The notes beneath the pieces are model-generated. The model saw nothing but the letters and a program-made list of their open reading frames with translations. It searched no databases and was not told the DNA's origin. A stretch of DNA of 64,000 nucleotides from assembly GCA_050298555.1 (NCBI GenBank), contig JBNKUL010000057.1:4229-68228 (forward strand), written 5' to 3'. This DNA comes from Thiohalomonadaceae bacterium. GTDB lineage: Bacteria; Pseudomonadota; Gammaproteobacteria; Thiohalomonadales; Thiohalomonadaceae. This document shows, one piece after another, positions 2,707 through 19,424 of the stretch. The stretch's first letter is position 1; the number at the start of each line of letters is the position of its first letter. A program made the position numbers and the translations under genes.

Positions 2707-3552
2707 GTGAGCGTCAGCAACCCTATCCCCCTCGAGGAGATCGCCGCCCAGGTGGCCGCGGCCCTGGCCGAGGACATCGGCGGTGGTGACCTCACCGCCG
2801 CCCTGATCCCCGAGCAGGCCCGCTCCGAGGCGACCATCATCAGCCGCGAGGAGGCGGTGCTCTGCGGCACCGAGTGGGTCAATCAGGTCTTCGCCCAGCT
2901 CGATAGTAGTATTGAGATTGAGTGGCAGGTGGCTGACGGCGACCGTGTAACGTCCAACCAGCTGCTCTGCACCCTCCGCGGCCCCTCCCGGGCGCTGCTC
3001 ACCGGCGAGCGTAGCGCGCTCAACTTCCTGCAGAGCCTCAGCGGCACCGCCACCTTCGCCTCGCGCTACGCCGCGGCGGTGGCCGGCACCGGGGTCAGGG
3101 TGCTCGATACCCGCAAGACCATTCCCGGCCTGCGGCGGGCACAGAAGTACGCCGTCAGCTGCGGCGGTTGCCACAACCACCGCATCGGCCTCTACGACGG
3201 GGTGTTGATCAAGGAGAACCACATCCTCGCCGCCGGCTCCATCGCCGCCGCGGTAGCAAAGGCGCGAGAGACCGCCCCGGCCGGTATCCCGGTCGAAGTG
3301 GAGGTGGAGAACCTGGATGAGGTGGCACAGGCACTGCAGGCCGGTGCCGATATCCTGCTGCTGGACAACATGCCGCCCGCGACCCTGCGCGAAGCGGTTG
3401 CGTTAAACGAGGGAAAGGCGAAGCTGGAGGCCTCCGGCAACGTCAACCTGGAGACCATCCGTACCATCGCCGAGACCGGGGTGGACTACATCTCGGTGGG
3501 AGAGCTGACCAAGCACCTGCGCGCGGTGGACCTCTCCATGCGCTTCGCCTAG
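2707..3552 (+). CDS. nadC: Nicotinate-nucleotide pyrophosphorylase (quinolinate phosphoribosyltransferase)
   Basis: Motifs [41 protein letters not shown] and LLLDNM. GTG start. Confidence 0.92.
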
Positions 3553-3561
3553 GCGGAAACG

Positions 3562-5532
3562 CTAAGGCCCTGCCGTGGCCTCGACGCTGAGCGAGTAGGT
3601 ACCGTAGCGGCCGATGTAGCCGTAGATAGAGACGTTGTTGTAGACGTAGTTAGTGGTCACTACCTGCAGGTAGACCGTCTCGTCTACAGTGGGTGTGTAG
3701 GTCAACTCTGAACTGAAATGGGTGCCGTTGTGCAGGGAAGGCTGGCAGCTGCCGCAGTCGGCAGCGTCGTCGTTTATTAAGTCGACCATTAACCCTGTAT
3801 CAGGGTCTAGCTCCTGCAACACATTCCCTGAAGCATCATAAAGCCCGATTACCGTATCGCCGCCGTTACGCAGGTTGTGGCTGTAGATTCGGTAGGTCAC
3901 ATTGGCCGAGAGGTTAAGGGCAATGTAGTCGCTGTCCTGCTGCTCTAGCCCATCCACTGGCCTCTGATACAGGTAGTGCTCTTCGGCGTCGACGCAGGTC
4001 AGCGGATAAGTCGCCCCCGCTGCCACGCTACAGTCCCGCGCCACCGCATCGGCCAGGGTGTCGTCCACCTCAAAGCTATCGCGCTTATAGTAGACCTCAC
4101 GCCCAGCCAGGATAGCCTGCCACTGGTACTCTTTACTGGGGGTGCGCTGGGGTAGAGTCAGCATGCCGTCCCAGAACGACTCCAGGGTGTCGGCAGTGGT
4201 GTTGGAGGTCATAGAGTTCGACAACACATCCCACACCGCTACCGCTCCCAGATCCGGCTGTTGATTGAACTGCCATAGCAGGTTGGCCACGGCCGTCTCA
4301 TTAGTTGAGTAAACGTATATAGGAGACCCATCAACAGAGTTAACCGTAGGTGCCGTGGCAAGATCAATCACGAGCGGCTCACCATACTCCACATTGTCGA
4401 TGTAGTAGCTACTAGCAACGAATGATGGCGTAGAAAGGCGTGCAAGAAGGTTGTTATCCAGCAACCATTTCTTCAACGCCGCCTGAAAGTAGTTGCCGTG
4501 CCCCTCGCTCCAGCTCAGGCGCAGATCGAGATAGTCTGCCGACAGAGTGTGGTAGCCGCCAGGCGAGTCGAAGTGGCCGAGGGAGAATTCGACAAAGTGG
4601 GCAAACTCATGCCACAGCACATCGTCATCGAACTCGTCAGTATCGCCTGACCCGACCGGGTCGCTCAGGACATAGATCCCTGCCCCATTACTGCAACTGC
4701 CGTTATCCAAGGCGCTACAGGTATAGGTGCCGGTGGAGTCTTTATAGGTCCAGAAGGCATTCAGCGCAGGAAGGGAAAGGTCGCCGTTGCTGATATCGGC
4801 GATAAATTCCGTAGCTGTGATATAGACATCATAGATATTGTAGGCCCCCGCCATCTTACTGGCACGGTCTATTCGTACATTGGCCACCGTGCTGTCGAGC
4901 GTGAGAGTCACGGCCTGCGAAACAGCATAGAGGTATCCCCTCTGGCTCTTGACCGCCACCTGATAACCGCTGTCACTGGCAGCCTCGGCATAGATATAGA
5001 GCGTGTAGTCGCCCACCGCCGTCTCGGCAAACTGGTAGTTGCCGTTGCCGTCACTGGCCGTGCTCTGCAGCAGGTTCCCCTCGGCATCGAGCAGTTCGAT
5101 CAGCGCATGGCGTACCGGCTTGTAGGGCTCGAGCCCGGTAAAACCGTTGCTGGCATATTGGCGGTCCTGGTACTCGACCTTACCCGACAGCAGCGTCGTG
5201 GGGAGGCAGGTGACCTGAACGTCGGTCACGTCCACACTCCCTGCGGTGCCGCTGCCGTTACTGACGCTACAGCTCTGCCCGCTAGGCGCGCTGGCCACGC
5301 TGACCTCGTAGCTGCTCCCCTCCGTTACCTTGCTGGAGAAGGTAAAGCTTCCGTCCGCATCCACTGTCAGGTCATCAGCGGCGTTGAGCTGCAGCACCAG
5401 ACCGCTGCCGTCCAGACCATTGACGCTGCCGCCGATGCCGACCTGTACGGAACCATCGGACGAGCTGCTGGAACAGCCGCCAAGGGCCAGCAGCCAGAGG
5501 CTGCAGAAGAGAAGACGAAGGTAGTAATTCAT
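3562..5532 (-). CDS. Lipoprotein with a carboxypeptidase-regulatory-like beta-sandwich, a gluzincin-type HExxH metalloprotease core and a PPC-like C-terminal domain
   Basis: Signal peptide plus lipobox (LLALGGC, then a Ser-rich tether) from the ATG at 5532. The GKVEYQD...GNGNYQF...GDYTLYIYA segment looks like a CarboxypepD_reg fold. HEFAH lies at 4597-4611, with a downstream WSEGHGNYF (Glu ligand as in MA-clan/M1-like enzymes). The C-terminal DSDYIALNL...YRIY...GLYDASGN pattern resembles a pre-peptidase C-terminal domain. Confidence 0.6.
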   Translation of the reverse strand: MNYYLRLLFCSLWLLALGGCSSSSSDGSVQVGIGGSVNGLDGSGLVLQLNAADDLTVDADGSFTFSSKVTEGSSYEVSVASAPSGQSCSVSNGSGTAGSVDVTDVQVTCLPTTLLSGKVEYQDRQYASNGFTGLEPYKPVRHALIELLDAEGNLLQSTASDGNGNYQFAETAVGDYTLYIYAEAASDSGYQVAVKSQRGYLYAVSQAVTLTLDSTVANVRIDRASKMAGAYNIYDVYITATEFIADISNGDLSLPALNAFWTYKDSTGTYTCSALDNGSCSNGAGIYVLSDPVGSGDTDEFDDDVLWHEFAHFVEFSLGHFDSPGGYHTLSADYLDLRLSWSEGHGNYFQAALKKWLLDNNLLARLSTPSFVASSYYIDNVEYGEPLVIDLATAPTVNSVDGSPIYVYSTNETAVANLLWQFNQQPDLGAVAVWDVLSNSMTSNTTADTLESFWDGMLTLPQRTPSKEYQWQAILAGREVYYKRDSFEVDDTLADAVARDCSVAAGATYPLTCVDAEEHYLYQRPVDGLEQQDSDYIALNLSANVTYRIYSHNLRNGGDTVIGLYDASGNVLQELDPDTGLMVDLINDDAADCGSCQPSLHNGTHFSSELTYTPTVDETVYLQVVTTNYVYNNVSIYGYIGRYGTYSLSVEATAGP

Positions 5533-5536
5533 GGGA

Positions 5537-6025
5537 CTACTGCTGCAGCGGCACCACCTGCAGGCGGCGACCGTTGTGCTCCACCTCACGGCCCAGAGGC
5601 CTTCCGGCCTTATTGGTCACGACACCAGCGGCCATCACCCCAAAGGCAAAACTGGCCCGCTGCGAGAAGCTGCCGCCAGCGCCAAGGTTCAGCACGGCAA
5701 TGGCGGCTATACGGTTTTCGTGCGTGGTAGAGAAGCGGCCGCTATAGGACAACTCTAACGGCTCACCGGCGGTAATTGCCCCCTGCCACATCAGCTCACC
5801 CTCCAGCAGCTCCATGTCCGCGGGCGGCTGTAGCATCACCCGCAGGTTGTTGCCGGAGACCCGGCTAGTGACCGTCACCACGAAGCTGACGACCTCGCCT
5901 CCGGTATCACCCTGCGGTTCGATGGTAATGCTCAACGGCCCCTGGGGCTTGGCGGTCTGTACCGCGGCGCAGTTCAGGGAGAAGAGTGCGAGAAGTAGTA
6001 ATATGAACAGTCTTGGTTTCAACAT
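5537..6025 (-). CDS. Small secreted protein of unknown function (162 aa)
   Basis: Clear signal peptide MLKPRLFILLLLALFSLNCAAV. Its stop lies 4 nt before the start of the downstream protease gene (operon-like). No recognisable motif. Confidence 0.5.
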   Translation of the reverse strand: MLKPRLFILLLLALFSLNCAAVQTAKPQGPLSITIEPQGDTGGEVVSFVVTVTSRVSGNNLRVMLQPPADMELLEGELMWQGAITAGEPLELSYSGRFSTTHENRIAAIAVLNLGAGGSFSQRASFAFGVMAAGVVTNKAGRPLGREVEHNGRRLQVVPLQQ

Positions 6026-6084
6026 AGCGCTTACTCTGTCTCAGTTCGATTCAACATAATGCTTACCCTGTCTCAATTCGACAG
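6021..6084 (-). repeat. Tandem ~32-nt imperfect direct duplication of the translation-initiation region of the 162-aa gene
   Basis: Plus strand: aacataGCgcttacTctgtctcaGttcgaTTC (6021-6052) versus aacataATgcttacCctgtctcaAttcgaCAG (6053-6084). Each copy contains an ATG on the minus strand (6025 and 6057). Confidence 0.65.
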
Positions 6085-6117
6085 AAAAAAAAGGGGGCGG
6101 TTCACACCGCCCCCTCC
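6085..6117 (-). terminator. Rho-independent terminator after the giant lipoprotein gene
   Basis: Minus strand reads GGGGGCGG-TGTGAA-CCGCCCCC followed by TTTTTTTT (8-bp GC stem, 8-T run). A second 7-bp hairpin at 6123-6140 lies directly after the stop codon. Confidence 0.65.
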
Positions 6118-6140
6118 TTTATCACTCCTGGAAAGGAGTG

Positions 6141-9100
6141 TTACTTCGCGCGGCGGGCTTCCGCACGCTTGTATGCCTTGTGGGCACGGCGCTTGGAGCT
6201 ACGCTCACGCTCAGCAGCCGCCTTGTCGGCAGTACTGGCGCCCGGCTTGTAGAAGGACTCAGTATTCCAGTCGCTGGTGCTGTTGACGTAGATGGTGTGA
6301 CCATGACAGCCATCCATACCACAGGCATCGACGCTGACACGGACATCCTCGGCGCCAACCGGCAAGTCTCCGCTTAAGCTGAAGTCACCAGTGCCCGCAT
6401 CGTAACTCATCGGCATGTCGCCCCACTGGTTCGGTGCGGTCAGGGAGGAGTCGAAGTAGCCGTACTCCCACATACCGGTGGTCGGGTCGAAGTACTCCAC
6501 ACTGGCCCAGACACTGTCTGCAACGAAGTTGGCGATATCCACCGAACCGGTTACGGTCTGGGTACCGGACAGACCGGTGGCACCGTGTGTCGGCGAGGTG
6601 ATGGTCACATACTGAGGCGGCATGATGCCGTTGGCGGTAGTGATATTGACGTTATACCAGTTCCAGTCCGCATCGTTGACCGAGACGTAGTTGTAACCGT
6701 TGTAGAGGCTGACATCGAAGCTGAATGCCCCACCCACGATCTCGAAGTTGCCCCAGCTATTACCGGTCCAGTACTCGCCCCAGCCATCGGAACCGGAAGT
6801 GGTGCCGCTGATAGTCACGGTAGTGGCGGTACCGGCATCCCAGTCGCTGTAGGCACAGCTACCCGACCAGCTATTGTCGGTAACACCCGCCGGTACCGTG
6901 AGGCTGATCGGCGCGTATGCCGGGGAATTGCTATCACTGGCAATAGTGACGCTGAGCCAGTTGTTACCATCGCTGATGTCGAACCACTGAGAGTCGTAGT
7001 AGCCATACATCGGGTCATAGGTAGCCGGGTCGCTGTCGTGCAGGTCGACGGTGGTATGCCAGTCGTAGGTGCCACTGGCATTAGCAACCGTATCGGCTAC
7101 CGCAACGATCTCCTCGCTACCGCCGCAGACACCGCTACTGATCTTGATGTTGCGACCGGGAACGGTGCTGGTACCCGAGATGATTACGGTGGGTGTAGTC
7201 ACCGGCATGATGCCGTAGGTGGCATCTGAGTAGCCGTACTCCCAGCCATCGCTTGTGAGCGCCACATTGTTGGCGTCGGTGATGCTATCGACGGTCAGCA
7301 TGGGAGCGACATAGGCACAGGTGGTATCGGTGGTCTGAAGCTCGATACCGACACTGGTCATGTTGGCATCATCCCAGATGTTCACCCAGTTGTAGCTGCC
7401 TGTACCACCAACGACGGGGAAGGTGACAGAGAACTGCTGATCCGGGTCAACACCGGCAACACCGCCACCGGGCAGGAGGAGCTCCTGATTCTCCCAGTAG
7501 TAACCGGTGCTATCGGAGCCGTTCCAGTCAGCCCACATGCTGGTGCTATTAGCCGGTGCGGTACCGGTGATGGTAGCGGTACAGCTATCAATCGATACCG
7601 GAGCAATCCAGCCATAGTTGTCAGCTACAACATCAGTTGTGTTGACTTTGGTAATGACCGGCTTCGGCACGCTCTGGCCGTTATCGGTGTAGATGTTGAG
7701 GCCGTACCAGTTACCGTTGCCGTCCTCGATGGAAATCCAGTTCCAGCCCTCGTAGAGGGTGATATCGAAGCTGAATACCCCACCAGTTGCGGTGAAGTTA
7801 ACAGAATCACTCCAGATGCCATCAGCACTGTGGTAGTACCAGCCGCTGGTGCTGCCATCCAATTCACCACTGACGGTGATCACACTGGTGGCAGTAGTGA
7901 CATCGGTAGCATTCCAGTCGGAACCCATGCCCCAGTCACCGGTAGAGGTAGCGGCACCCTCAGTAGTAGCAACAGAGGTGATGCTAACTGGCGGCACATA
8001 GGTCTGACCGGCCTCGGTGTAGATACCGAAGTTCGAACCGGTCCAGAGGTAGGTGTTGCCACCATCGCTACCATCGAAGTTGACGCTAATCCAGTTATCA
8101 CCCTGGTAGAGCGGCACACCGGTGATGGTAATCAGACCAAGACCATTAATAGTGTCGTAGTTCGGGTCAACCGTGATGTAACCGTTCTGGCTGGCACCCA
8201 TGGTCGGATCCCAGTAGTCGTTGACGTAGGCACCCGACTCATTGTTGAGCCACAGGTTGATACTAAACCAACCGCTGGTTGAGTTCATAATCGCACTGAT
8301 GTCGGCGTTATTCAGATCAACCGTAAACTGTGCGGTGAATGAACTTGCGGTCAGGGCATCGGCATGATTCCACGCACCGAGGTCGATGGCGTTACTGGCC
8401 TGGTCGGTCACGGAGAGCACTTCGATTGCCGGCGGGATACCACCGGTGGTCTTGACGCTGAAGCCGCGATAGAGGTCGGCACCGTCGTTCACATCAACCC
8501 AGTTCCAGCCCTGGAACAGGTTCACCGTAGCGGTAGCCGTGGCAGTACCGTCACCGTTATCGGTAAAGCTCAGCGGCTGATCGTCCCAGCCGCTCTCACT
8601 GTTCAGATAGAGCCAACCGCCGTTAGCCGCGGCAGTCGCGCCATTCGGGGAGGTTACGGTGATGGTGATGCTGTTCGCGTTATCGGCATCGTAACCGCCG
8701 ATCCACTCGCTGAAGGTCAGCGCACCCACGGTGTTACCGTCATCGGCCGCAACGGTGACACCGATATCCTTGCGTACACCGGGGTTCTTGACGCGCTTGA
8801 CGGCGCTGACGGCAGAGATATCGCGAACCATCTCTTTGACGCTCACATTGACGTCACCGTTGGTGTCGGGCAGGAAGTCGGCAGAGAGCTTGCTGCCCAG
8901 ACCGATAATCTCCCAAATGAACTCCTCACCTTCGCGCTCGATACCCCAGTCGACGTAGTTGCCCATTTCATCCTGGGTCTTGAAGCCGAAATAGTCGGAG
9001 ATATCAACGGCGCCGTTGGGCAGGCCCTGGGCCTCCGGAATGGTGAAGGTCAGGCGGCTCACGCCGTCAGTACCGGTCACGGTATCCAGGTTGGCCTTAT

Positions 9101-11174
9101 TGATGATCATCGCAAAGCCCAGCTCTTCCGGGTCACGGGTGTTGGCAATCATGAAGATGTAGCTCTGAACGCCGGTGGCATGCTCCCACTTGAAGGTCAG
9201 CGGGTCCATGTCACTCGGGATAGCGGCAAGGGTCGAGCCATTGGTCACAGGATCGGTATTGCCATTTTCATACATCTTCACATCGAGCAGGTCGAGGGAC
9301 ACCAGGGCGGTACCACGGTGGTCGGTCCCCTCGGAGAGACGCGAAACCTTCCAGGCGCCGTTGAGGTGCTTGACGCTAACGTAGAAGGTGTCTTCCGGCA
9401 TCGCATCACTACACTCTTTACTGGTGTTGGTGGTCGCGGCCGTGAAGTTGAAGGCGAAGTTAGCATTATCCGCATCCACCACATTGATGGTAGTGGCCGC
9501 GCCGGTGTCATCCGTGGCCAGGGCTGCACTCAGCTCAACGCTGCAGTTCGCCCACATGGTGGTGGCCATCTCCATCAGGCTCATGAACTCTTTCAGGCTG
9601 AGGCGACCGTTGCGGTTGACATCCTCCTCCATGAATTCGCCATAGTTGAGGTTGTACTCCATCACGAAGGTGGAGGTCATCAGGCTCTTCAGCAGGGTCA
9701 GGTTGCCATCGTTCATGGCCTGTACCCACTGACCAAAGAGCTCGAGCACCTCGGTCTGGGCGGCAATGGTATCTGCCGTACCCGTGGAGTCGATACCGTC
9801 GGCAGCGCCCACCGTGGTAAAGGTGCCGGTCAGGTCTGAGCTGGCGTTACCGGACAGGTCGCTGATGCCGCTGATGGTGTAGCTGTAGGTGCTATTCAGC
9901 TGCAGCGACTCGGTAAGGTCGAACTGGTAGAGATAGTTACCACTGGCATCCTGCCCCATGAACATCACGCCCGGCAGGTCGCCCACGCTGGGGGTGGAGG
10001 CAATACGCAGGGTATTGATGTCCAGCAGCTCATCGGAGCTCAGCTGCAGCGGTGTGGTGAGTGCCACATCGGTCGCACCGTTAGTGATGCTGAAGGTAGC
10101 GGTAGGACCGGAGCTGTCGCCAGCCACCGCGGTTACGGTACCCACTGCCTCGTAACCGGTGGTATTGCTGTAGACGTTGGCAACGGTTTCCGGGACGGTC
10201 ACGGTGTAGTCGCCTGCCGCCAGGTCGGTGTCAGGCTCGAAGGTCGCGGTCATCCAGTCGGCCGACAGCGCCCATTTACCAGCAACCGCACTACCATTTT
10301 CCACGGTGATGTTCTGCACACTACCGCGACTCATGGCCATATCGAAGGTCACCTGAATCGCCGCGTTGGCAGGCATCTCGCCGCCAGTCCAGGTCTTGGT
10401 GCCGTCGGTGTTCTTGTTGACGCCGAACATGGTGACCACGTTCGGGGTGACGTCGCTCGCCTCAGCACTGAGGTCATCGACGGTGACTGTACCGCCATCG
10501 GTGGTCGGCTCGGCCTTAAAGGCGGGCTGTACCGCAACGATCGGGTCGGTGGTGACACCGGCAACCGGGTCGAAGGTGGAGGGCTTGTAGACCAGCATGG
10601 TGTAGGTGCCGGAGGGGATGGGGTCACCATCTACGTATGCATCACCATTGGAGGCAGCAGTCGCACTACATTCAGCAGATGAAACACGGTCAGAGCACCC
10701 ATATACGTTCAGCGTATAAGCACCTGTACTATCTGTTACGTCTTGCGCCACGGGACTCAACCATTCAGGGTGATCCGCATCGTAGAGATAAACATAAGCG
10801 TTGGAGACAACATCACCGGCGGCAAACAGCGGCACGTCGGGGTTGCCGCCATTGATCATCGGCTTGTTGGCCACCCGGTAGCCCTTGCCGTTCGGACCGG
10901 GCTTCATCTTGGGTGCATGGGCCATGGCCTTGAGCTGGGCAGGTCCGGGCTTGGAGGAACCGGCAAGCAGGCTGGAGAGGGTCACCTTACCGGAAATGAC
11001 CGTAGCAACGGGGGTGGTACCGCCACCGGTGTCACCACCAGTATCGCCACCGGTGTCACCGCCAGTATCACCGGTAGTGGTGGTGCCACCGCCGCCGCCA
11101 CCACAGCCGACACTCACAAGTGCCAGCAGGGTGACGAGAAAAACTCTTCCAAACCGGTTTCTTAGCGAAGCCAT
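6141..11174 (-). CDS. Giant (1677 aa) multi-domain cell-envelope lipoprotein: Gly-rich tether, CarboxypepD_reg-like domain, two SbsA/Big_5-like Ig domains, NTF2-like domain with an EF-hand loop, about six Trp-rich beta-sandwich modules, Cys/His cluster and basic tail
   Basis: RBS GGAGAGGG lies 8 nt upstream of the ATG at 11174. Signal peptide ends in the lipobox-like LVSVGC. Uninterrupted 5,034-nt ORF with coding-like composition. Domain assignment is by eye from sequence patterns (see findings). Confidence 0.8.
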   Translation of the reverse strand: MASLRNRFGRVFLVTLLALVSVGCGGGGGGTTTTGDTGGDTGGDTGGDTGGGTTPVATVISGKVTLSSLLAGSSKPGPAQLKAMAHAPKMKPGPNGKGYRVANKPMINGGNPDVPLFAAGDVVSNAYVYLYDADHPEWLSPVAQDVTDSTGAYTLNVYGCSDRVSSAECSATAASNGDAYVDGDPIPSGTYTMLVYKPSTFDPVAGVTTDPIVAVQPAFKAEPTTDGGTVTVDDLSAEASDVTPNVVTMFGVNKNTDGTKTWTGGEMPANAAIQVTFDMAMSRGSVQNITVENGSAVAGKWALSADWMTATFEPDTDLAAGDYTVTVPETVANVYSNTTGYEAVGTVTAVAGDSSGPTATFSITNGATDVALTTPLQLSSDELLDINTLRIASTPSVGDLPGVMFMGQDASGNYLYQFDLTESLQLNSTYSYTISGISDLSGNASSDLTGTFTTVGAADGIDSTGTADTIAAQTEVLELFGQWVQAMNDGNLTLLKSLMTSTFVMEYNLNYGEFMEEDVNRNGRLSLKEFMSLMEMATTMWANCSVELSAALATDDTGAATTINVVDADNANFAFNFTAATTNTSKECSDAMPEDTFYVSVKHLNGAWKVSRLSEGTDHRGTALVSLDLLDVKMYENGNTDPVTNGSTLAAIPSDMDPLTFKWEHATGVQSYIFMIANTRDPEELGFAMIINKANLDTVTGTDGVSRLTFTIPEAQGLPNGAVDISDYFGFKTQDEMGNYVDWGIEREGEEFIWEIIGLGSKLSADFLPDTNGDVNVSVKEMVRDISAVSAVKRVKNPGVRKDIGVTVAADDGNTVGALTFSEWIGGYDADNANSITITVTSPNGATAAANGGWLYLNSESGWDDQPLSFTDNGDGTATATATVNLFQGWNWVDVNDGADLYRGFSVKTTGGIPPAIEVLSVTDQASNAIDLGAWNHADALTASSFTAQFTVDLNNADISAIMNSTSGWFSINLWLNNESGAYVNDYWDPTMGASQNGYITVDPNYDTINGLGLITITGVPLYQGDNWISVNFDGSDGGNTYLWTGSNFGIYTEAGQTYVPPVSITSVATTEGAATSTGDWGMGSDWNATDVTTATSVITVSGELDGSTSGWYYHSADGIWSDSVNFTATGGVFSFDITLYEGWNWISIEDGNGNWYGLNIYTDNGQSVPKPVITKVNTTDVVADNYGWIAPVSIDSCTATITGTAPANSTSMWADWNGSDSTGYYWENQELLLPGGGVAGVDPDQQFSVTFPVVGGTGSYNWVNIWDDANMTSVGIELQTTDTTCAYVAPMLTVDSITDANNVALTSDGWEYGYSDATYGIMPVTTPTVIISGTSTVPGRNIKISSGVCGGSEEIVAVADTVANASGTYDWHTTVDLHDSDPATYDPMYGYYDSQWFDISDGNNWLSVTIASDSNSPAYAPISLTVPAGVTDNSWSGSCAYSDWDAGTATTVTISGTTSGSDGWGEYWTGNSWGNFEIVGGAFSFDVSLYNGYNYVSVNDADWNWYNVNITTANGIMPPQYVTITSPTHGATGLSGTQTVTGSVDIANFVADSVWASVEYFDPTTGMWEYGYFDSSLTAPNQWGDMPMSYDAGTGDFSLSGDLPVGAEDVRVSVDACGMDGCHGHTIYVNSTSDWNTESFYKPGASTADKAAAERERSSKRRAHKAYKRAEARRAK
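11019..11072 (-). repeat. In-frame tandem repeat encoding (GDTGG)x4 in the lipoprotein tether
   Basis: DNA repeat with 15/30-nt periodicity: ggtgtcaccaccagtatcgccacc / ggtgtcaccgccagtatcaccggt. Confidence 0.7.
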
Positions 11175-11524
11175 AGTTTTACCCTCTCCAGTTCAAATAA
11201 CCGACTCGCTCGGTTTCTTAATAGTAATAATTTCCACAGTTGTGCCGCAGAAAATAGGCTAATCGCCAGCGGGATGCAAACCCTTTATAGAATTTGTCTA
11301 TTATTCCCCGAAGTATCAAAATGTCATCGTGATAAATTAAAGAACAACAGCACAATAGCTCGCTATCCTACTGTTTTAATTAATGATATGTGCGCCATCT
11401 CTTATGGACCCGCCCCCAATACACGCAATGGAACCAGGGGATATATGGAAGAGGGCAGCGCAATATTTTTTTTAAAACTGATATGTTGTTCACAAAAAGT
11501 CCGCCACCTTAGACCGGTATCGCA

Positions 11525-13702
11525 ATGAAACAACTGCTCAAACACAACAAGACGAATGCCGCCGCCCTAATCGCCCTAATTATTGGAATAGTGGTGAGCA
11601 GCCTATTCTATAGTGGTGCACTGGCTCGGCTGGAGTGGATCAGCTACGACCTGCGCATGCGTTACCACCAGGAGGAGAGCACGGTGCACCCGCAGGTAGC
11701 GGTGGTGCTGATCGACGAGGCCTCGCTGCAGGCGATGGATCCACTGGTCGGCCGCTGGCCCTGGCCGCGCTCCGTCTACTCGGAGCTGCTGGAGTTCTTC
11801 GCCATGGGTGGGGCGCGGGCTGTGGCCTTCGATATTCTGTTCCCCGAACGCGATACCCAGGGAGGAGTGACGGAAAACGGCTATGGCCCCAACGACCAGA
11901 GCTTCATCGATGCCACGGCGGCGGCTGGCAGCGTTATCCATGCGATGCAGGTGATGCGTGAGCTCGACAGTAGTGCGCACTCCACCACCCTAAACCGCCC
12001 GATACCCGAGGCCTTTGTACAGCAACACGCCATCAGCTCCGCCGTGGATTTTCCCGACTACGGCAATAACGACTATCTGCTGCCGATTGAGGGGTTGGCT
12101 CAGGCGGCGGCCGGCATCGGTATTGTGGAGATCGATCCTGATGACGACGGTGTCTACCGGCGTATTCGCCCCTTTAGTGTCTACCAGGGCAATGTCTTCC
12201 CTTCGCTGGGGATGGCACCGCTGTTCGATGGCGGCACGGTCCATTTTAACGGGGACCACATCACCACTGACAACGGCATGGTGCTACCCCTGGACGAGGA
12301 TGGCTTCTACCCCATCAAGATGGAGGGACGCTTCGAGCCCTACTCCATCAGCGGCATCCTCGCCACCATCCAGAACCTGAAGTCCGGCGATGTGGAGAAC
12401 CTGCTGGTGGATCCCTACGAGTTCGAGGACAAGGTGGTCTTTATCGGCGCCAGCGCCATCGGTGTGCAGGACATCAAGGCGACGCCGATGTCGGCCAAAA
12501 CACCCGGAGTGTTCCTGCACGCCTCAATGGCCAGCAGCCTGCTCAAGGGGGCCTCGCTACAGCCACCAAGTGCCACCGTAACGGTGCTGCTGATCATCGG
12601 ATTCACCCTGCTCACCACCGTGGGCATCCTGCTGTTCAGCCACAGCCATAGCTTCCAACAGGCGCTGCTGCCATTGATGCTGGCGGTTTGCTATGGCGGC
12701 TGGTCTATTTGGGAATTCGGCAACGGCCGGGTCTATGAGATGATTGCTCCGCTGCTCGCCATCGCCCTGAGCTGGCTTGGCAGCTCCTCCTACCTGGTCT
12801 TCACCGAGGGTAAGGACAAGCGCCGGGTGCGCAATATGCTGTCGCAATACGTCTCGCCCGCGGTACTCGCCACGGTGGTGGATAAATATGAGAACCAGAT
12901 CCAGGCCGAGGTCGGCAAGCGGGAGAATCTCACCATCCTCTTCTCCGACATTCGCGGTTTCACCGCCACCTCGGAAACCGTCGAGGCGGAAAGGGTGGTG
13001 GAGATGCTCAATACCTACTTCTCGGCGATGACCGATGTGATCTTCGACTACGAAGGGACACTGGATAAGTTCATCGGGGATGCCATCATGGCCTTCTGGG
13101 GGGCGCCAATCCTGCACGCCGACCACGCCGACCGCGGCGTGATGGCGGCCCTCACGATGCAGCGGGCACTGGTGAAGGTCAACGAGGAGCTTACCGCCAT
13201 CGGCCTGCCCAGCGTCACCATCGGCATCGGCCTTAACAGCGGCGACGTGATTTTGGGCAACATCGGTTCGGCGCGAAAGCTCGACTACACCATCATCGGC
13301 GACAACGTAAACCTGGCCTCCCGGCTGGAGGGGCTGACCAAGTATTACGGCGTACCGTTGATCATCTCGGAGAACACCCATGCCCAGCTGCAGCAATCCA
13401 TCCCCTGTGCGGTGGTCGATATGGTGCGGGTGAAGGGTAAGACGGTACCGATACGGCTATACTCACCCCTGGCGCTGCCCGATGATGATGAGGCGACTGT
13501 CCAAACGGCACGGCGCGTGGCAGAATTGAGCCATCAGGCCTTTGACAGCTACCTGGCGCAACGCTGGGATGATGCCATCGCCCTATACGAACAACTGCCA
13601 TATGAAACACTGAAAAAGGTGTTCATCACACGGTGCCAGGAATACCTCCTACACCCCCCGACAGAGGGATGGGACGGTGCGTACACCATGAATAGAAAAT
13701 AA
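11525..13702 (+). CDS. Receptor-type class III adenylate/guanylate cyclase with a periplasmic CHASE2 sensor domain
   Basis: N-terminal TM (ALIALIIGIVVSSLFYSGAL), a ~300-aa extracytoplasmic region, three TM helices, then the cyclase core with LTILFSDIRGFTATSE, KFIGDAIMAFWGAP and GLNSGDVILGNIGS...DYTIIGDNVNLASRLE. Confidence 0.87.
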   Translation: MKQLLKHNKTNAAALIALIIGIVVSSLFYSGALARLEWISYDLRMRYHQEESTVHPQVAVVLIDEASLQAMDPLVGRWPWPRSVYSELLEFFAMGGARAVAFDILFPERDTQGGVTENGYGPNDQSFIDATAAAGSVIHAMQVMRELDSSAHSTTLNRPIPEAFVQQHAISSAVDFPDYGNNDYLLPIEGLAQAAAGIGIVEIDPDDDGVYRRIRPFSVYQGNVFPSLGMAPLFDGGTVHFNGDHITTDNGMVLPLDEDGFYPIKMEGRFEPYSISGILATIQNLKSGDVENLLVDPYEFEDKVVFIGASAIGVQDIKATPMSAKTPGVFLHASMASSLLKGASLQPPSATVTVLLIIGFTLLTTVGILLFSHSHSFQQALLPLMLAVCYGGWSIWEFGNGRVYEMIAPLLAIALSWLGSSSYLVFTEGKDKRRVRNMLSQYVSPAVLATVVDKYENQIQAEVGKRENLTILFSDIRGFTATSETVEAERVVEMLNTYFSAMTDVIFDYEGTLDKFIGDAIMAFWGAPILHADHADRGVMAALTMQRALVKVNEELTAIGLPSVTIGIGLNSGDVILGNIGSARKLDYTIIGDNVNLASRLEGLTKYYGVPLIISENTHAQLQQSIPCAVVDMVRVKGKTVPIRLYSPLALPDDDEATVQTARRVAELSHQAFDSYLAQRWDDAIALYEQLPYETLKKVFITRCQEYLLHPPTEGWDGAYTMNRK

Positions 13703-13719
13703 TTATGGAGAGGGACGTT

Positions 13720-14193
13720 ATGAAGAGAACTCTGTTATTTGCCGCCCTGATGGCCGCATCCACGCTCAGCGCCGCGGAAACGCTCTACGTCCAGAGCAAC
13801 AAGGCCAAGCTTCTGGAGACACCCCAATTCAATGCCCCAGCTGTCGGCGAACTACAGAAGGGCAATGAAGTGAATGTACTGCAGCAGCAGAAGCGCTGGG
13901 TAGAGGTCGAGTATCAGGGCAACAGTGGCTGGCTTTCGCGCTTCCTGCTCTCCGACCACCCTCCCCTGAAGAAGGTGACGGTACTGGGTGATGGGGAAAC
14001 CCTGAAGCTAGAGGAGAACGCCCGGCGCAGGGCCTCCGCCGTGACCACCGCAGGTGCTGCCCGTGGCCTCTCCGCGGATGACCGCAAGCGTAGTAATAGC
14101 GGTGATAAGTCCGACTACTTCGCCCTGGAAAAGGTGGAAAACTACAAGGTCGAGGATAAGGCCGTCACTGAATTCATCGAGCAGGGTAAATAG
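13720..14193 (+). CDS. Periplasmic SH3b-domain protein
   Basis: Signal peptide MKRTLLFAALMAASTLSAAE. SH3_3-like core is LYVQSNKAKLLETPQFNAPAVGELQKGNEVNVLQQQKRWVEVEYQGNSGWLSRFLL. The ATG at 13720 follows GGAGAGGG. Confidence 0.7.
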   Translation: MKRTLLFAALMAASTLSAAETLYVQSNKAKLLETPQFNAPAVGELQKGNEVNVLQQQKRWVEVEYQGNSGWLSRFLLSDHPPLKKVTVLGDGETLKLEENARRRASAVTTAGAARGLSADDRKRSNSGDKSDYFALEKVENYKVEDKAVTEFIEQGK

Positions 14194-14195
14194 TA

Positions 14196-15041
14196 ATGAA
14201 AAGCGGCAAAGTCGCCACCAGGCTTCTGGGCATGGCCGCGGTCATGCTAATGGCATTCAACCTCCAGGCGGCGCAGGAATTCCGCCAGCGCATCCATGCG
14301 GTCAAGCTGGATGTAGAGGGCATCACCTCGGACGTCGAGGCGGAGATCGAGTTCGGCAGGGAGGTGGCCGCCCGCATCCTCGGCCGCTATTCACTGGATG
14401 ATAGCGAATCGATCAACCGCTATATCAACCTGGTCGGCCAGAGCGTGGTCCGGCACGCCGGACGACCGGAGTTGCAGTTCCACTTCGCCATGCTGGAGAG
14501 CGACGAGGTCAACGCCTACGCCGCCCCCGGTGGCTATATCTTTATAACCAGGGGGGCGCTAAAGCTGATGCGGGACGAGGCGGAGCTCGCCGCGGTACTG
14601 GCCCACGAGGTCGCCCACGTCACGCAGAAGCATATCGTCAAGGAGCTCAACATCCACGCCGCCGACGACTCCACCGAAGCGGGGCTGGCCGCCCTGCTCG
14701 GCGGTATGAGCGACCCGGCCCGGGTGGCCTTCCTGCAGGCCCTGGACAAGGCGGTAGAACTGCTGTTCTCCGCCGGCCTGAAGAAAGAGGACGAGTACGA
14801 GGCGGACCAGGTGGGAACCATGCTGAATGTCGCCAGCGGCTATGACGCCACCGCGCTGCACCGCTACCTGGACCGCGTCAAGCAGCAGAAGGGGGAGAAG
14901 ACCGCCATCCTCAGTCACACCCACCCCTCATTCTCCTCGCGCCTGACCTTGCTGCAAGGCCTGTTCCAGGAAGAGAAGCTGGAGCACGATGCAGACAAGA
15001 CGGTGAAGCAGCGCTTCGACACCCAAATCAGCCAACTGTGA
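14196..15041 (+). CDS. Periplasmic M48-family zinc metalloprotease
   Basis: Signal peptide present. NAYAAPGGYIFITRG, then the HExxH motif LAHEVAHV (14604-14618). Size is similar to the short M48 proteases of the YcaL/LoiP type. Confidence 0.85.
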   Translation: MKSGKVATRLLGMAAVMLMAFNLQAAQEFRQRIHAVKLDVEGITSDVEAEIEFGREVAARILGRYSLDDSESINRYINLVGQSVVRHAGRPELQFHFAMLESDEVNAYAAPGGYIFITRGALKLMRDEAELAAVLAHEVAHVTQKHIVKELNIHAADDSTEAGLAALLGGMSDPARVAFLQALDKAVELLFSAGLKKEDEYEADQVGTMLNVASGYDATALHRYLDRVKQQKGEKTAILSHTHPSFSSRLTLLQGLFQEEKLEHDADKTVKQRFDTQISQL

Positions 15042-15058
15042 ATTTAAGGAAGTGTGTA

Positions 15059-16318
15059 ATGAGCAATAATAAGAACACTTACCGTAGCGCTGTTCTGCTC
15101 TGCGGTCTGGCGACCTCTGGCCTCGCCGCTGCGGACGATTTCCACTACATCAATATGCAAATGGGCGATCGCGCCTCCGGCATGGCCGGCGCCTACACCG
15201 CGGTCTCCGACGACCCCTCCGGGCTGTTCTACAACCCGGCGGGCCTCACCTACATGGGCACCCGCAACCTCTCCGCCAGCATGAACGCCTACCACACCAC
15301 CAACCTCAAATATAAAGGGGTACTGGGTGGCGGTGACTGGAAACGCGAATCGGGCAACCTGGTGCCGAACTTTTTCGGTGTCGCACAACCCATGGGCATC
15401 GGGGTATTCGGCTTCTCCTATGCGGCCACCGATGCGATTGTGGAGAATCAGGACTCGGTCTTCTACAACGTGGGCACGCAAATAAAACAGTTCACCTTGA
15501 ACCTGAACAATGAGGAGAAGACCTACAAGATTGGTCCCTCCTTTGCCCTGGCGGTCAACGACGACCTCTCTGTGGGGATCACGCTTTATGCCCACCTACG
15601 CGACACCGAGACCATCTTCAACCAGAATATCATCCTCAATGACGATACCTACGAGTGGTCAAACAACTACACCCAAACCAGTGAGGTGGGGATAGAGCCG
15701 ATCATTGGCGTTATGTGGAGCCCGTTGGACAAGGTTTCATTCGGCCTGTCGGTCAGGACAACCCAGCTACTCAGCGCAGAGCAGACCATCCAGCAAGCCG
15801 TCTCGACTGACATCGGCTGCACCACCGGTACAGCATGCCCGTCCACGGTTCCGACCCCCACACTCATTAACGCTAGCGAAACACGCAGCTACCCGATTAG
15901 CACCTCTGTCGGTATCGCCTACTTCCCCAGCGATAAGCTGATCTACAGTATCGACTTCGATTATCACAGCACAGCGGACGGGGGAACCAAGCGCGCAAGC
16001 AACAAAACCGCAACCTGGAACGTGAAGGCCGGAATGGAGTATTACCTCTACAGCAACTGGGCACTTCGTGGCGGCATCTACACCAACAATGCCAACACCC
16101 CAGAAATCGATTCCAGCAAAACCGACCAGGATCAACATATCAACCTGTTAGGTTTCAGCCTCAGCGCCACGCGCTTTAGCCGTAACTCCTCCCTAAGCGT
16201 GGGCGTAAACTATGCGTCGGGCACCGGTGAGGCGCAGGTGATTAGCGGTACAACAGCCACCCAGGATGTCGATGCGAACAACCTCAGTCTCTTCCTCTCA
16301 ACCTCCTACAGCTACTAG
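15059..16318 (+). CDS. Outer-membrane beta-barrel protein, FadL/TodX-like
   Basis: Signal peptide AVLLCGLATSGLAAA. N-terminal plug-type motif GDRASGMAGAYTAVSDDPSGLFYNPAGL. Alternating amphipathic beta pattern throughout, and C-terminal ...LSTSYSY (aromatic terminus). Confidence 0.6.
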   Translation: MSNNKNTYRSAVLLCGLATSGLAAADDFHYINMQMGDRASGMAGAYTAVSDDPSGLFYNPAGLTYMGTRNLSASMNAYHTTNLKYKGVLGGGDWKRESGNLVPNFFGVAQPMGIGVFGFSYAATDAIVENQDSVFYNVGTQIKQFTLNLNNEEKTYKIGPSFALAVNDDLSVGITLYAHLRDTETIFNQNIILNDDTYEWSNNYTQTSEVGIEPIIGVMWSPLDKVSFGLSVRTTQLLSAEQTIQQAVSTDIGCTTGTACPSTVPTPTLINASETRSYPISTSVGIAYFPSDKLIYSIDFDYHSTADGGTKRASNKTATWNVKAGMEYYLYSNWALRGGIYTNNANTPEIDSSKTDQDQHINLLGFSLSATRFSRNSSLSVGVNYASGTGEAQVISGTTATQDVDANNLSLFLSTSYSY

Positions 16319-16440
16319 GACGTCGAATTCGTACGGCTTTGACCAAGCTCTCATAACTGCCGAATGCAGCTAGAATTATCATTCGAATTATCATAGGGTT
16401 GAGCCATTGATATGAACGACACGGGATACATGTTTGGGAT

Positions 16441-18171
16441 ATGGCGAGCTCTAGTATGAATGTCAGTTTGAGCGGCCTGGCTCGCAAGCTGGTCAATGAC
16501 GGCCTGCTGAGTGAAGAGGCGGCCGTCAAGGCCACCGAAACGGCACAACAGGAGAAGCGCCCCTTCGTCAGCTATGTGGTGGCGGAGGGACTTGTCGACT
16601 CCCTGGCATTGGCCTCCACCGCGGCGCAGGAGTTCGGCGTGCCGCTGTTCGATATCGACGTGGTCGAGCTCGATGATGAGGTCACCAAGCTCGTCGACGA
16701 AAAGCTGATACGCAGCCACCACGCCCTGCCCCTGTTCAAGCGCGGCAATCGCCTGTTTGTCGCCGTCTCCGACCCCACCAACCTGGCCGCCCTGGACAAC
16801 ATCAAGTTCCACGTGGGCGTCACCACCGAGGCTGTGCTGGTTCAGGAAGACAAGCTGACCCGGGTAATTGAAAAGGCGATGGAGGCGGGCAGTGCCGCCT
16901 CCCTCGGCGAGGGGCTGGACGATGCCGACCTCGACGGCCTGGAGGTCAGCGCCGAGGACGAGGACAAGGAAGACGAGGGGCTGGATAAGGAGATCGACGA
17001 CGCCCCGGTCGTGCGCTTCGTCAACAAGATCCTGCTCGACGCCATCAACAAGGGGGCGTCGGATATCCACTTCGAGCCGTATGAGAAGCGCTACCGCGTG
17101 CGCTTCCGCACCGACGGTATGCTCAAAGAGGTCGCCTCGCCGCCGATCCAGCTGGCCGGCAAGATCGCCGCCCGCGTCAAGGTCATGTCGCGCCTCGATA
17201 TCTCCGAGAAACGGGTACCGCAGGACGGCCGTATCAAGCTGACCCTGTCGAAGAACAAAGCGATCGACTTTCGTGTCAACACATGCCCTACCCTGTTCGG
17301 CGAGAAGATCGTACTGCGTATTCTCGACCCCTCCAGTGCCAAGCTGGGTATCGATGCCCTGGGTTATGAGCCGGAGCAGAAGCAGCTCTACATGGACAAC
17401 CTGGCAAAGCCTTACGGCATGATCCTGGTGACCGGCCCCACCGGTTCCGGTAAGACCGTATCGCTCTACACCGGCCTCAACATCCTCAACACCGAGGACG
17501 TCAACATCTCCACCGCAGAGGACCCGGCTGAGATCAATCTCGAGGGGATCAACCAGGTCAATGTGAACGATAAGGTGGGGCTGACCTTCGCCGCGGCACT
17601 TAAAGCGTTTTTGCGTCAGGACCCGGACATCATCATGGTGGGTGAGATCCGTGACATGGAGACGGCGGAGATCGCCGTCAAGGCGGCACAGACCGGCCAC
17701 ATGGTAATGTCCACCCTGCACACCAATGACGCGCCGCAGACTATCACCCGTCTGATGAACATCGGCATCCCGCCCTACAACATCGCCGCCGCGGTAAACC
17801 TGATCATCGCCCAGCGCCTGGGGCGCCGCCTCTGCAGCCACTGCAAGGAGGTCGACGATGCGCCGAAGGAGGCCCTGCTGGAGGAGGGCTTCAGCGAGGA
17901 GGAGATCGATGCGGGGATGAATATCTACAAGGCCAACCACGAGGGTTGCGATCAATGCTCCGGTGGCTACAAGGGGCGGGTCGGCATCTACCAGGTCATG
18001 CCCATGTCCGAGGAGATGGGGCGCCTCATCATGAAGGGCAACGCCACCTCCTATGACATCGCCGATCAGGCGGCGAAAGAGGGTATTCCGGATATCCGCC
18101 AGTCTGCACTGAAAAAGGTAAAGAACGGCCTCACCAGCCTGGAAGAAGCCAACCGCGTGACTAAGGACTAA
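16441..18171 (+). CDS. pilB: Type IV pilus assembly ATPase
   Basis: GspE/PilB family. Walker A GPTGSGKT, MVGEIRD, and the tetracysteine CSHC...CDQC. Confidence 0.95.
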   Translation: MASSSMNVSLSGLARKLVNDGLLSEEAAVKATETAQQEKRPFVSYVVAEGLVDSLALASTAAQEFGVPLFDIDVVELDDEVTKLVDEKLIRSHHALPLFKRGNRLFVAVSDPTNLAALDNIKFHVGVTTEAVLVQEDKLTRVIEKAMEAGSAASLGEGLDDADLDGLEVSAEDEDKEDEGLDKEIDDAPVVRFVNKILLDAINKGASDIHFEPYEKRYRVRFRTDGMLKEVASPPIQLAGKIAARVKVMSRLDISEKRVPQDGRIKLTLSKNKAIDFRVNTCPTLFGEKIVLRILDPSSAKLGIDALGYEPEQKQLYMDNLAKPYGMILVTGPTGSGKTVSLYTGLNILNTEDVNISTAEDPAEINLEGINQVNVNDKVGLTFAAALKAFLRQDPDIIMVGEIRDMETAEIAVKAAQTGHMVMSTLHTNDAPQTITRLMNIGIPPYNIAAAVNLIIAQRLGRRLCSHCKEVDDAPKEALLEEGFSEEEIDAGMNIYKANHEGCDQCSGGYKGRVGIYQVMPMSEEMGRLIMKGNATSYDIADQAAKEGIPDIRQSALKKVKNGLTSLEEANRVTKD

Positions 18172-18174
18172 ACC

Positions 18175-19404
18175 ATGGCTGAAAAAGCAAAACTCGACAC
18201 CTTTGTCTGGGAGGGGACGGACAAGCGGGGCGCCAAAAAGGGCGGCGAGATGCCCGGCCAGAGCGTATCCATGATTCGCGCGGAGCTGCGCAAGCTTGGC
18301 ATCACCCCCATTAAGGTAAAAAAGAAGCCCAAGGCCATCTTTGGCGGCGGTGGCCCCAAGGGAAAGAAGATCATCCCCAAGGACATCGCCATTTTCTCCC
18401 GCCAGATGGCGGTGATGATGTCCTCGGGGGTACCACTGGTGCAGTCCTTCGACATCATGGGTAAGGGTGCGGAGAACCCCAACATGCGTGCCCTGATCTA
18501 CGCCATTAAGGGCGACGTCGAGGGCGGTGCCACCCTGGCAGAGGCGTTCAGGAAACACCCGCAGCACTTCGATGACCTTACCTGCAACCTGGTCCATGCC
18601 GGTGAGCAGGCGGGTATCCTGGAGAGCCTGCTGGACAAGATTGCCACCTACAAGGAGAAGACCGAGGCCCTGAAGGGCAAGATCAAGAAGGCACTGTTTT
18701 ACCCAACAGCAGTACTTGTCGTCGCCTTTATTATCACCGCAGTGCTACTGATCTTCGTTATCCCCCAGTTCGAGGCGCTGTTCTCCGGCTTCGGTGCCGA
18801 CCTGCCGGCGCTCACCGCCTTCGTGGTGAAACTGTCGAAATTCTTTCAGGAGCAGTGGTTCTTCATCTTCGCTGGCATCGGTGCAATCGTATACAGCTTC
18901 AAACAGGCAAAACAGCGTTCAAAAGCCTTCCGCGAGGGCATTGAGCGCATGTCGCTGAAGGCACCGGTCATCGGCGAGTTGCTCAACAAGGCGGCCATTG
19001 CCCGCTTCTCCCGTACCCTCTCCACCATGTTCGCCGCCGGCGTCCCCCTGGTTGAGGCAATGGAGTCGGTAGCCGGCGCCGTGGGTAACGTGGTCTACCG
19101 TGAGGCGGTGCTGGGTATGCGCGATGATATCTCCACCGGTACCTCGATCACCGCGAGTATGGAACAGGCCGGGATCTTCCCCAACATGGTAACTCAGATG
19201 ACCTCTATCGGTGAGGAGGCGGGCTCGCTCGATACCATGCTGGGAAAGGTGGCCGATTTCTACGAGCAGGAGGTGGACGACGCCGTGGACGCCCTCACCA
19301 GCCTGCTGGAGCCGCTGATCATGGCCTTCCTCGGTGTCGTTGTCGGCGGCCTGGTACTCGCCATGTACCTGCCTATCTTCAAGATGGGCGATGCGGTTCT
19401 GTAA
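18175..19404 (+). CDS. pilC: Type IV pilus inner-membrane platform protein
   Basis: GspF/PilC duplicated domains, three TM segments, and a position between pilB and pilD. Confidence 0.95.
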   Translation: MAEKAKLDTFVWEGTDKRGAKKGGEMPGQSVSMIRAELRKLGITPIKVKKKPKAIFGGGGPKGKKIIPKDIAIFSRQMAVMMSSGVPLVQSFDIMGKGAENPNMRALIYAIKGDVEGGATLAEAFRKHPQHFDDLTCNLVHAGEQAGILESLLDKIATYKEKTEALKGKIKKALFYPTAVLVVAFIITAVLLIFVIPQFEALFSGFGADLPALTAFVVKLSKFFQEQWFFIFAGIGAIVYSFKQAKQRSKAFREGIERMSLKAPVIGELLNKAAIARFSRTLSTMFAAGVPLVEAMESVAGAVGNVVYREAVLGMRDDISTGTSITASMEQAGIFPNMVTQMTSIGEEAGSLDTMLGKVADFYEQEVDDAVDALTSLLEPLIMAFLGVVVGGLVLAMYLPIFKMGDAVL

Positions 19405-19424
19405 CGCCCCACTCCTGAGTCACT

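Follow-up and report, generated by a model that had tools for sequence, protein, structure and literature searches.

In Pseudomonas aeruginosa, the interval between nadC and pilB is reportedly a variable pilin island (Kus et al. 2004; Giltner et al. 2011), in which nadC is followed by a tRNA-Thr gene, tfp accessory genes and pilA, with pilA divergent from the adjoining pilB-pilC-pilD-coaE genes. Here we describe the same interval, the nadC-pilB slot, in a 64,000-nucleotide stretch of DNA (the window) from a Thiohalomonadaceae bacterium (GCA_050298555.1, contig JBNKUL010000057.1; C57:4229-68228 of genome G000, a draft of 2.80 Mb in 89 contigs). Gene calls and hidden Markov model (HMM) matches confirm what a first reading of the letters alone (the sequence-only reading) had noted: nadC ends at 3552, pilB starts at 16441, and the 12.9 kb between them holds seven genes in two divergent operons. 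As in the P. aeruginosa island, the left flank is nadC and the right flank pilB-pilC-pilD-coaE, and here too the content between conserved flanks varies among relatives. Unlike that island, however, this slot has no divergent pilA, no tRNA gene and no pilin-modification genes, the Pfam domains of the seven genes being unrelated to such functions. Its variable content is an envelope and cyclase module that has nothing to do with pilin, and the slot of close relatives is empty instead of holding other pilin alleles. Variable content at this position was already known; what is new is a classical pilin slot that has been emptied of pilin and holds an uncharacterised seven-gene module.

The P. aeruginosa pilin locus appears in published work through primers and through its island status (PMC2841157, PMC5174107). 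Also relevant here are the class III adenylate cyclases with a CHASE2 sensor, for example those of the Sinorhizobium meliloti CyaD1/CyaD2/CyaK type (PMC13001267), and the split pilin of Geobacter sulfurreducens, PilA-N (GSU1496) and PilA-C (GSU1497; PDB 2m7g, 6vk9), the adjacency of whose genes has been described (PMC5174107).

The slot in relatives and the site of the pilin gene

We located pilB and nadC in 40 related genomes, extracted their neighbourhoods and compared pilB synteny over 80 loci. G002 was left out of the slot comparison, as neither gene was found in its 70%-complete assembly. In four congeners (G001, G003, G004 and G005, whose nadC orthologues are 73-77% identical) and in three sister-clade genomes (G013, G019 and G020), nadC directly abuts pilB at a distance of 126-224 bp, and none of these seven junctions contains a pilin gene, a pilin motif or remnant, or any similarity to genes of the block. 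All five congeners searched lack the first and largest gene in the left operon, here called the giant gene, as well as an orthologue of the cyclase gene that opens the right operon; the giant gene occurs in two of the 41 genomes searched, and the complete seven-gene version sits in the slot in this genome only. Relatives therefore do not all carry the seven genes, and the view of the interval as variable accessory content is borne out. This distribution also provides a natural series of presence and absence among close relatives, which should be useful for comparative or genetic work.

The sequence-only reading went further, proposing that the block occupies the place of a pilin cassette, and that part does not hold. 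Because the seven relatives without the block also lack pilA at this position, the absence of pilin from the slot is clade-wide and independent of the block. At deeper range the slot does hold pilA: the order nadC-pilA-pilB with a divergent pilA is found in Oceanospirillales- and Pseudomonadales-like loci (L064, L069, L080, L087 and L090), and in most of the remaining gammaproteobacterial loci one or two pilin genes immediately precede pilB. The slot thus once held pilA, and its loss is common to the whole clade and not linked to the block, the separation of pilA from pilBCD being older than the presence or absence of the seven genes. The block is not a substitute for a pilin cassette. These comparisons correct an appealing displacement story: the clade keeps pilA with pilSR, and its nadC-pilB junction is empty. 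Overall, the earlier observation is confirmed and its interpretation partly supported.

A search of the whole genome with the N_methyl HMM, together with a scan for leader motifs, found 18 prepilin-type genes above cut-off and, in agreement with the sequence-only reading, no match and no open reading frame with a prepilin leader motif in the interval or anywhere else in the window. The same search, which that reading had suggested, located the pilin beside pilSR on contig C46, so the pilus assembly genes are indeed separated from their structural subunit. The locus (C46:43852-46453; L115 5853-8454) comprises pilS, pilR, a 59-residue prepilin, a 155-residue secreted Cys-rich protein, a 61-residue prepilin and ATP-binding cassette (ABC) transporter genes; PilQ and PilT/PilU are encoded elsewhere in the genome. 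The 59-residue prepilin, with the leader MKKMQKG|FTLIEL and an N_methyl score of 43 bits, is the predicted major pilin and has the form of a helix-only type IVa pilin of about 60 residues. Its counterparts share 93-95% identity with it in G002, G003 and G004 and 81-82% in G005 and G013, and a sigma-54 promoter, TGGCAC-N5-TGC, about 85 bp upstream is conserved in three congeners. The short-pilin cassette is kept in four congeners, and a full-length pilin is encoded at the same pilSR locus in G001, which suggests that the genus has its true variable pilin locus here. In most family members pilR adjoins the best pilin match, the usual order being pilS-pilR-pilA, and in G007 the order is pilR-pilA-pilB.

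The short pilin resembles the G. sulfurreducens split pilin in several ways. Among solved structures, its best matches are Geobacter 'Geopilin domain 1' chains (9egp, 7tgg and 2m7g/6vk9; E = 1e-16 to 1e-13), which rank ahead of any full-length pilin; a secreted, beta-rich protein of 155 residues is encoded directly after it; and the locus lies beside pilSR. It differs in that the host is a gammaproteobacterium and in that the 155-residue partner, 41-51% identical across the genus, has no detectable sequence similarity to PilA-C and no Pfam or PDB sequence match. The AlphaFold model of this partner has a predicted local distance difference test score (pLDDT) of 54, too low for structural comparison. 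The mature short pilin has aromatic residues at F1, F24 and Y27, or 3 of 52 (5.8%), which is below the aromatic density of at least 9.8% that defines e-pilins (bioRxiv 10.1101/668343). That survey placed truncated e-pilins in a Deltaproteobacteria cluster only; the present locus is a candidate for a Geobacter-like split short pilin in a genus of Gammaproteobacteria.

A recurrent module and its putative signalling role

The two operons of the block recur side by side. The cyclase operon (cyclase, SH3b-domain protein, M48 protease and outer-membrane barrel) occurs widely, its cyclase having more than 1,700 homologues at E<=1e-50, and the SH3b gene comes after the cyclase in every orthologous locus examined that extends beyond the cyclase gene. 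The giant protein, by comparison, is rare: a set of 5.8 billion proteins yielded only 32 homologues. Its best matches are a metagenome protein (51% identity) and a protein of Gynuella sunshinyii (50%), and the same-family homologue in G021 is only 37% identical. Its gene is always accompanied by those for a small protein and a protease-like lipoprotein, and this triplet is adjacent to the cyclase operon in five of the eight contexts examined. Homologues of the small protein, about 150-185 residues long and 30-34% identical, occupy the same position in L126, L140 and L143, and homologues of the lipoprotein (g675), 31-45% identical, lie downstream of the giant gene in Gynuella, L126, L128, L140, L143 and G021.

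The closest counterpart is L143, a contig of 39% guanine plus cytosine (GC) in which the barrel, M48, SH3 and cyclase genes run leftwards and the genes for the giant protein and for proteins of 149 and 651 residues run rightwards, exactly the divergent layout of G000. All seven proteins are homologous to those of G000 (33-54% identity), the spacer between the operons is likewise divergent (284 bp, 28.5% GC), and the unit lies between glmS and dsrE/merC. L128/L129 has the same divergent junction of cyclase and giant genes, L140 carries all seven genes collinearly, and in L142 the giant gene is followed by the cyclase operon. As the two halves are adjacent in all of these, the 12.9 kb is best described as a single recurrent unit that can sit at differing chromosomal positions, not as two unrelated cassettes. 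The two operons thereby become a defined, testable candidate for an uncharacterised surface-to-cyclic AMP (cAMP) signalling system. In G. sunshinyii (CP007142.1; L125 6390-17306) the gene ahead of the giant triplet, on the same strand, encodes a 1099-residue PAS-GGDEF protein in place of the CHASE2 cyclase operon, so that a different nucleotide-second-messenger enzyme occupies the equivalent position.

The domain content suggests what such a system might do. The left operon encodes three exported proteins: a surface lipoprotein of 1677 residues, a lipoprotein resembling zinc proteases and, encoded between them, a small secreted protein. In the right operon, an outer-membrane barrel is combined with two periplasmic proteins, of which one is a zinc protease, and with a CHASE2 sensor in the periplasm. 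The cyclase has the architecture of a CHASE2-class III enzyme, with an N-terminal CHASE2 and a C-terminal Guanylate_cyc domain, both above Pfam gathering scores, and the best solved relatives of its catalytic domain are the adenylate cyclases 6fht, 2w01 and 3r5g (P. aeruginosa CyaB). A Lys in DKFIGD and a Thr in YTIIGD form what we take to be the class IIIb adenine-specifying pattern. A cue at the surface or in the periplasm, perhaps a proteolytic product of the giant lipoprotein, would be sensed through CHASE2, and the cyclase would answer with cAMP; judged by its domains, the module probably relays a signal from the surface or from proteolysis to cAMP synthesis. The combination of a CHASE2 sensor with a class III cyclase domain is that of the S. 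meliloti type, and the catalytic domain aligns with solved adenylate cyclases such as CyaB. In contrast to these, the cyclase here heads a fixed operon of four genes and is paired, in a minority of genomes, with the giant-lipoprotein operon. A narrow literature search found no description of an association between a cyclase, SH3b, M48 and barrel operon and a giant lipoprotein.

The position of the module beside pilBCD invites a functional explanation, in which its cAMP output would regulate type IV pilus biogenesis and the adjacency would have been selected. In P. aeruginosa, CyaB and Vfr control type IV pilus biogenesis; among solved structures, CyaB (3r5g) closely matches the catalytic domain; and the cyclase operon lies immediately upstream of pilB in two lineages, G000 and the metagenome contig L116. 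Most orthologous operons, however, are away from pilus genes (L117, L140, L141, L142, L143, G011, G018 and G021), and this makes such a link decidedly unlikely. Seven relatives retain pilBCD without the module, and none of the 80 other pilB loci has module genes within 10 kb upstream.

History of the module in the family

In four other lineages of the family, pieces of the module adjoin nadC or pilB. In G015, nadC is followed by the whole cyclase operon; in G012 the cyclase gene comes next, and no other gene of the operon was detected; and in G021 nadC is followed by the g675 and giant genes, oriented as in G000, with the cyclase operon elsewhere in the genome. L116 carries a g675-like gene, the cyclase operon and then pilB and pilC. 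Mapping the flanks of G015, G012 and G021 onto this genome brought out no simple rearrangement.

These junctions also bear on whether the block could be a mis-join in a metagenome-assembled genome, a concern raised by the 89-contig draft. The nadC-module junctions are seen independently in G015, G012 and G021, the FadL-pilB junction is seen independently in L116, and both junctions of the block are internal to a 76-kb contig. A second public assembly with a longer, 128-kb contig (GCA_050297915.1) has the identical gene order with 3 mismatches in 22,178 bp, and on this ground the arrangement is not a mis-join; we regard an artefact as extremely improbable.

The cyclase tree pairs L116 with G000 as sisters and unites all cyclases of the family in a single starred clade. 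In the pilB tree, L116 is sister to G020, within a clade whose three genomes have the empty site. The ratio of operon to pilB distance is 1.9 for G000 and L116 against 2.3-2.65 for other pairs, roughly the expectation under vertical descent, although the dynamic range of the pilB clock is too small for this difference to be more than suggestive. The g675-like fragment of L116 is about equidistant from all homologues. Because module parts touch nadC or pilB in G015, G012, G021 and L116, and because the divergence of the operon fits that of pilB, an old association of the cyclase operon with this neighbourhood, followed by repeated loss, is the simplest account. We therefore lean towards a self-contained, dispensable seven-gene envelope module that has long been associated with the slot and has been lost from most relatives. 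On this account pilA would have left the slot long ago in the family, to lie now beside pilSR; the gap left behind would be either empty or filled with the module or its parts; and the cyclase operon would have lain near nadC and pilB for a long time and would have disappeared from most of the relatives sampled.

Several points weigh against this account. An ancestral module requires at least four independent clean deletions (in G004; in G001, G003 and G005; in G020; and in G013 and G019), and the genus tree, from a concatenate of seven proteins, came out as an unresolved star and so does not fix how many losses there were; the pilB tree groups G000 with G004, on partial sequence only. The giant protein of G000 clusters with Gynuella, Reinekea and other sequences from outside the family, and that of G021 with L140 and L142. 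An approximately unbiased (AU) test rejects a clade of the G000 and G021 giant proteins (p = 6.6e-5, for a group named after the tree had been seen). Tetranucleotide usage in the left half of the block is atypical, at the 95th-98th percentile, and the function proposed for the module is drawn from domain content alone. The grouping in the giant tree and the AU rejection together indicate that the left operon, at least, has a lateral component.

On a rival account, the junction of nadC and pilB was empty in the genus ancestor, and this species recently took in the whole module from a donor that was related and had a similar GC content; homologous recombination in the flanking nadC and pilB regions may have brought it in. 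One gain would replace at least four losses, the site is empty in all four assessable congeners and in the three sister-clade genomes, the giant operon is nearest to sequences from outside the family, the module occupies unrelated genomic positions elsewhere and is thus mobile, and the left half of the block has its unusual tetranucleotide usage. Recent gain would, however, need independent arrivals beside nadC or pilB in G015, G012, G021 and L116 without visible targeting, as there is no tRNA, integrase or repeat. The nadC of G000, where we sought a footprint of recombination, is not anomalous, its divergence from the congeners being no greater than theirs among themselves; codon usage is native-like; and the cyclase is no nearer to any outside donor than to family members. 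We consider recent gain a serious but less likely alternative.

Composition gives little sign of a foreign origin. The block has 57.9% GC, the giant gene 58.3% and the spacer between the operons 41%, compared with 67.7% for nadC and 60.9% for both pilB and the genome. The sequence-only reading was right that the giant gene and the spacer lie below nadC and pilB, but its counts of about 53% for the giant gene and 30% for the spacer were too low. In the windowed profile it called for, the left half does stand out in tetranucleotide distance, whereas the cyclase operon is at about the 50th percentile and the 5-kb windows of the block fall only at the 14th-19th GC percentile of all 5-kb windows in the genome. 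Codon usage is ordinary for every long gene of the block (relative synonymous codon usage distance at the 29th-58th percentile; GC at third codon positions 0.72-0.86). On this ground the tetranucleotide deviation of the left half probably stems from an odd amino-acid composition and not from foreign codon usage, and the compositional case for foreign origin is weak. The hallmarks of an integrative island are likewise missing: ARAGORN found no tRNA in the window, no direct or inverted repeats flank the block, no integrase or transposase domain is among the Pfam and NCBIfam matches in the window, and GC is lower than that of the genome by a mere 3 points. No such element points to a site-specific mechanism.

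The giant tree raises the further thought that the pilin-less gap is a replacement slot, in which two divergent forms of the system, corresponding to clades A and B of that tree, are exchanged or lost through the conserved flanks. The seven genes would then form one undescribed envelope signalling system, in which the giant surface lipoprotein and its own zinc-protease lipoprotein feed, through the M48 protease, SH3b protein and FadL-like channel, into the CHASE2 adenylate cyclase. We hold this combined proposal to be doubtful. We also considered a chimeric block, the two halves of which would have separate histories; this is unproven, as the giant tree supports it for G021 but the cyclase data do not, failing to reject the giant-tree topology (AU p = 0.13).

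Features of the block and neighbouring genes

Table 1. Annotated features in and around the nadC-pilB slot (window coordinates)
Feature	Position	Strand	Basis or remark
nadC (quinolinate phosphoribosyltransferase)	2707-3552	+	TIGR00078, 328 bits, above cut-off; left flank
656-residue lipoprotein (g675), third gene of left operon	3562-5532 (alternative start 5589)	-	Pfam CarboxypepD_reg/SdrD_B
162-residue protein with signal peptide, middle gene of left operon	5537-6025	-	no Pfam or NCBIfam match
1677-residue surface lipoprotein (giant), first gene of left operon	6141-11174	-	Pfam Big_5; lipobox in sequence
Divergent spacer between operons	11175-11524		AT-rich
CHASE2 sensor with class III cyclase	11525-13702	+	Pfam CHASE2, 173 bits (gathering 26.3); Guanylate_cyc, 86.9 bits (gathering 21.9)
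Periplasmic SH3b-domain protein	13720-14193 (alternative start 13705)	+	Pfam SH3_3/SH3_4
Secreted M48 zinc metalloprotease, BepA-like protease domain without tetratricopeptide repeats	14196-15041	+	Pfam Peptidase_M48, 110 bits
FadL/Toluene_X-like outer-membrane beta-barrel, last gene of right operon	15059-16318 (alternative start 15038)	+	Toluene_X, 40 bits; weak PorV_fam match
Conserved pilB upstream region	16340-16440	+	TGACCAA..CATAACT..GCTAGAAnTAT..ATCATAnGGTT; intact right of block
pilB	16441-18171	+	TIGR02538, 871 bits (cut-off 676)
pilB-pilC-pilD (type IVa pilus ATPase, platform protein, prepilin peptidase)	16441-20303	+	right flank of slot

The g675 lipoprotein, whose length of 656 residues follows the gene call in the second assembly, has a prealbumin-like domain, a HEFAH zinc-protease-like motif and a PPC-like C-terminus, and no sequence relative among PDB entries. 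The M48 protease scores 110 bits against NF052400, far below the cut-off of 570, and the start of the barrel gene is taken from the gene call of the second assembly. The spacer between the operons presumably carries the promoters of both; it contains one sigma-70-like match, on the minus strand at 11327-11300.

The roughly 100 bp upstream of pilB align with the corresponding stretch of the empty sites in G001, G003, G005, G013, G019 and G020, and the motif is seen by eye in the G004 spacer and in L116 as well. This region is kept across two genera whether the block is present or absent and, going by its conservation, is probably a pilB promoter or operator; no match to the sigma-70 consensus was scored on its plus strand. 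As the module leaves both the nadC stop and this region intact, the expression of pilBCD is probably unaffected by it.

The right flank is a type IVa pilus assembly operon, with a PilB equivalog above cut-off followed by PilC and PilD; the family matches for pilC (T2SSF) and pilD (Peptidase_A24) were obtained on the second assembly, which is 99.99% identical, and in which the NCBI gene call starts pilB 15 nt later. The coaE gene also lies downstream, after pilC and pilD. On the left, the stops of nadC and of the protease-like lipoprotein gene are convergent and 9 bp apart (3553-3561), with no terminator-like hairpin between them. The nadC gene is unusually divergent among congeners (73-83% amino-acid identity), compared with its left neighbours, which encode an alanine/sodium symporter and an FKBP isomerase (82-90%), and with pilB (85-90%); either relaxed selection on nadC or recombination at the edge of the slot could account for this.

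Prepilin-type genes also lie elsewhere in the genome. The N_methyl matches nearest to the window lie 2 kb past its end (C57:70297-72255) and are pseudopilins of the type II secretion kind. There, four tandem pseudopilin genes with prepilin leaders are followed by genes for a GspE-like ATPase and a secretin-like protein, and the cluster as a whole (C57:70297-76080) looks like type II secretion. A second pilus-type cluster, at C7:29748-39537, encodes a PilB paralogue (37% identity) and several prepilins, including an MshA-like pilin of 135 residues, and one of its minor-pilin frames has an internal TAG.

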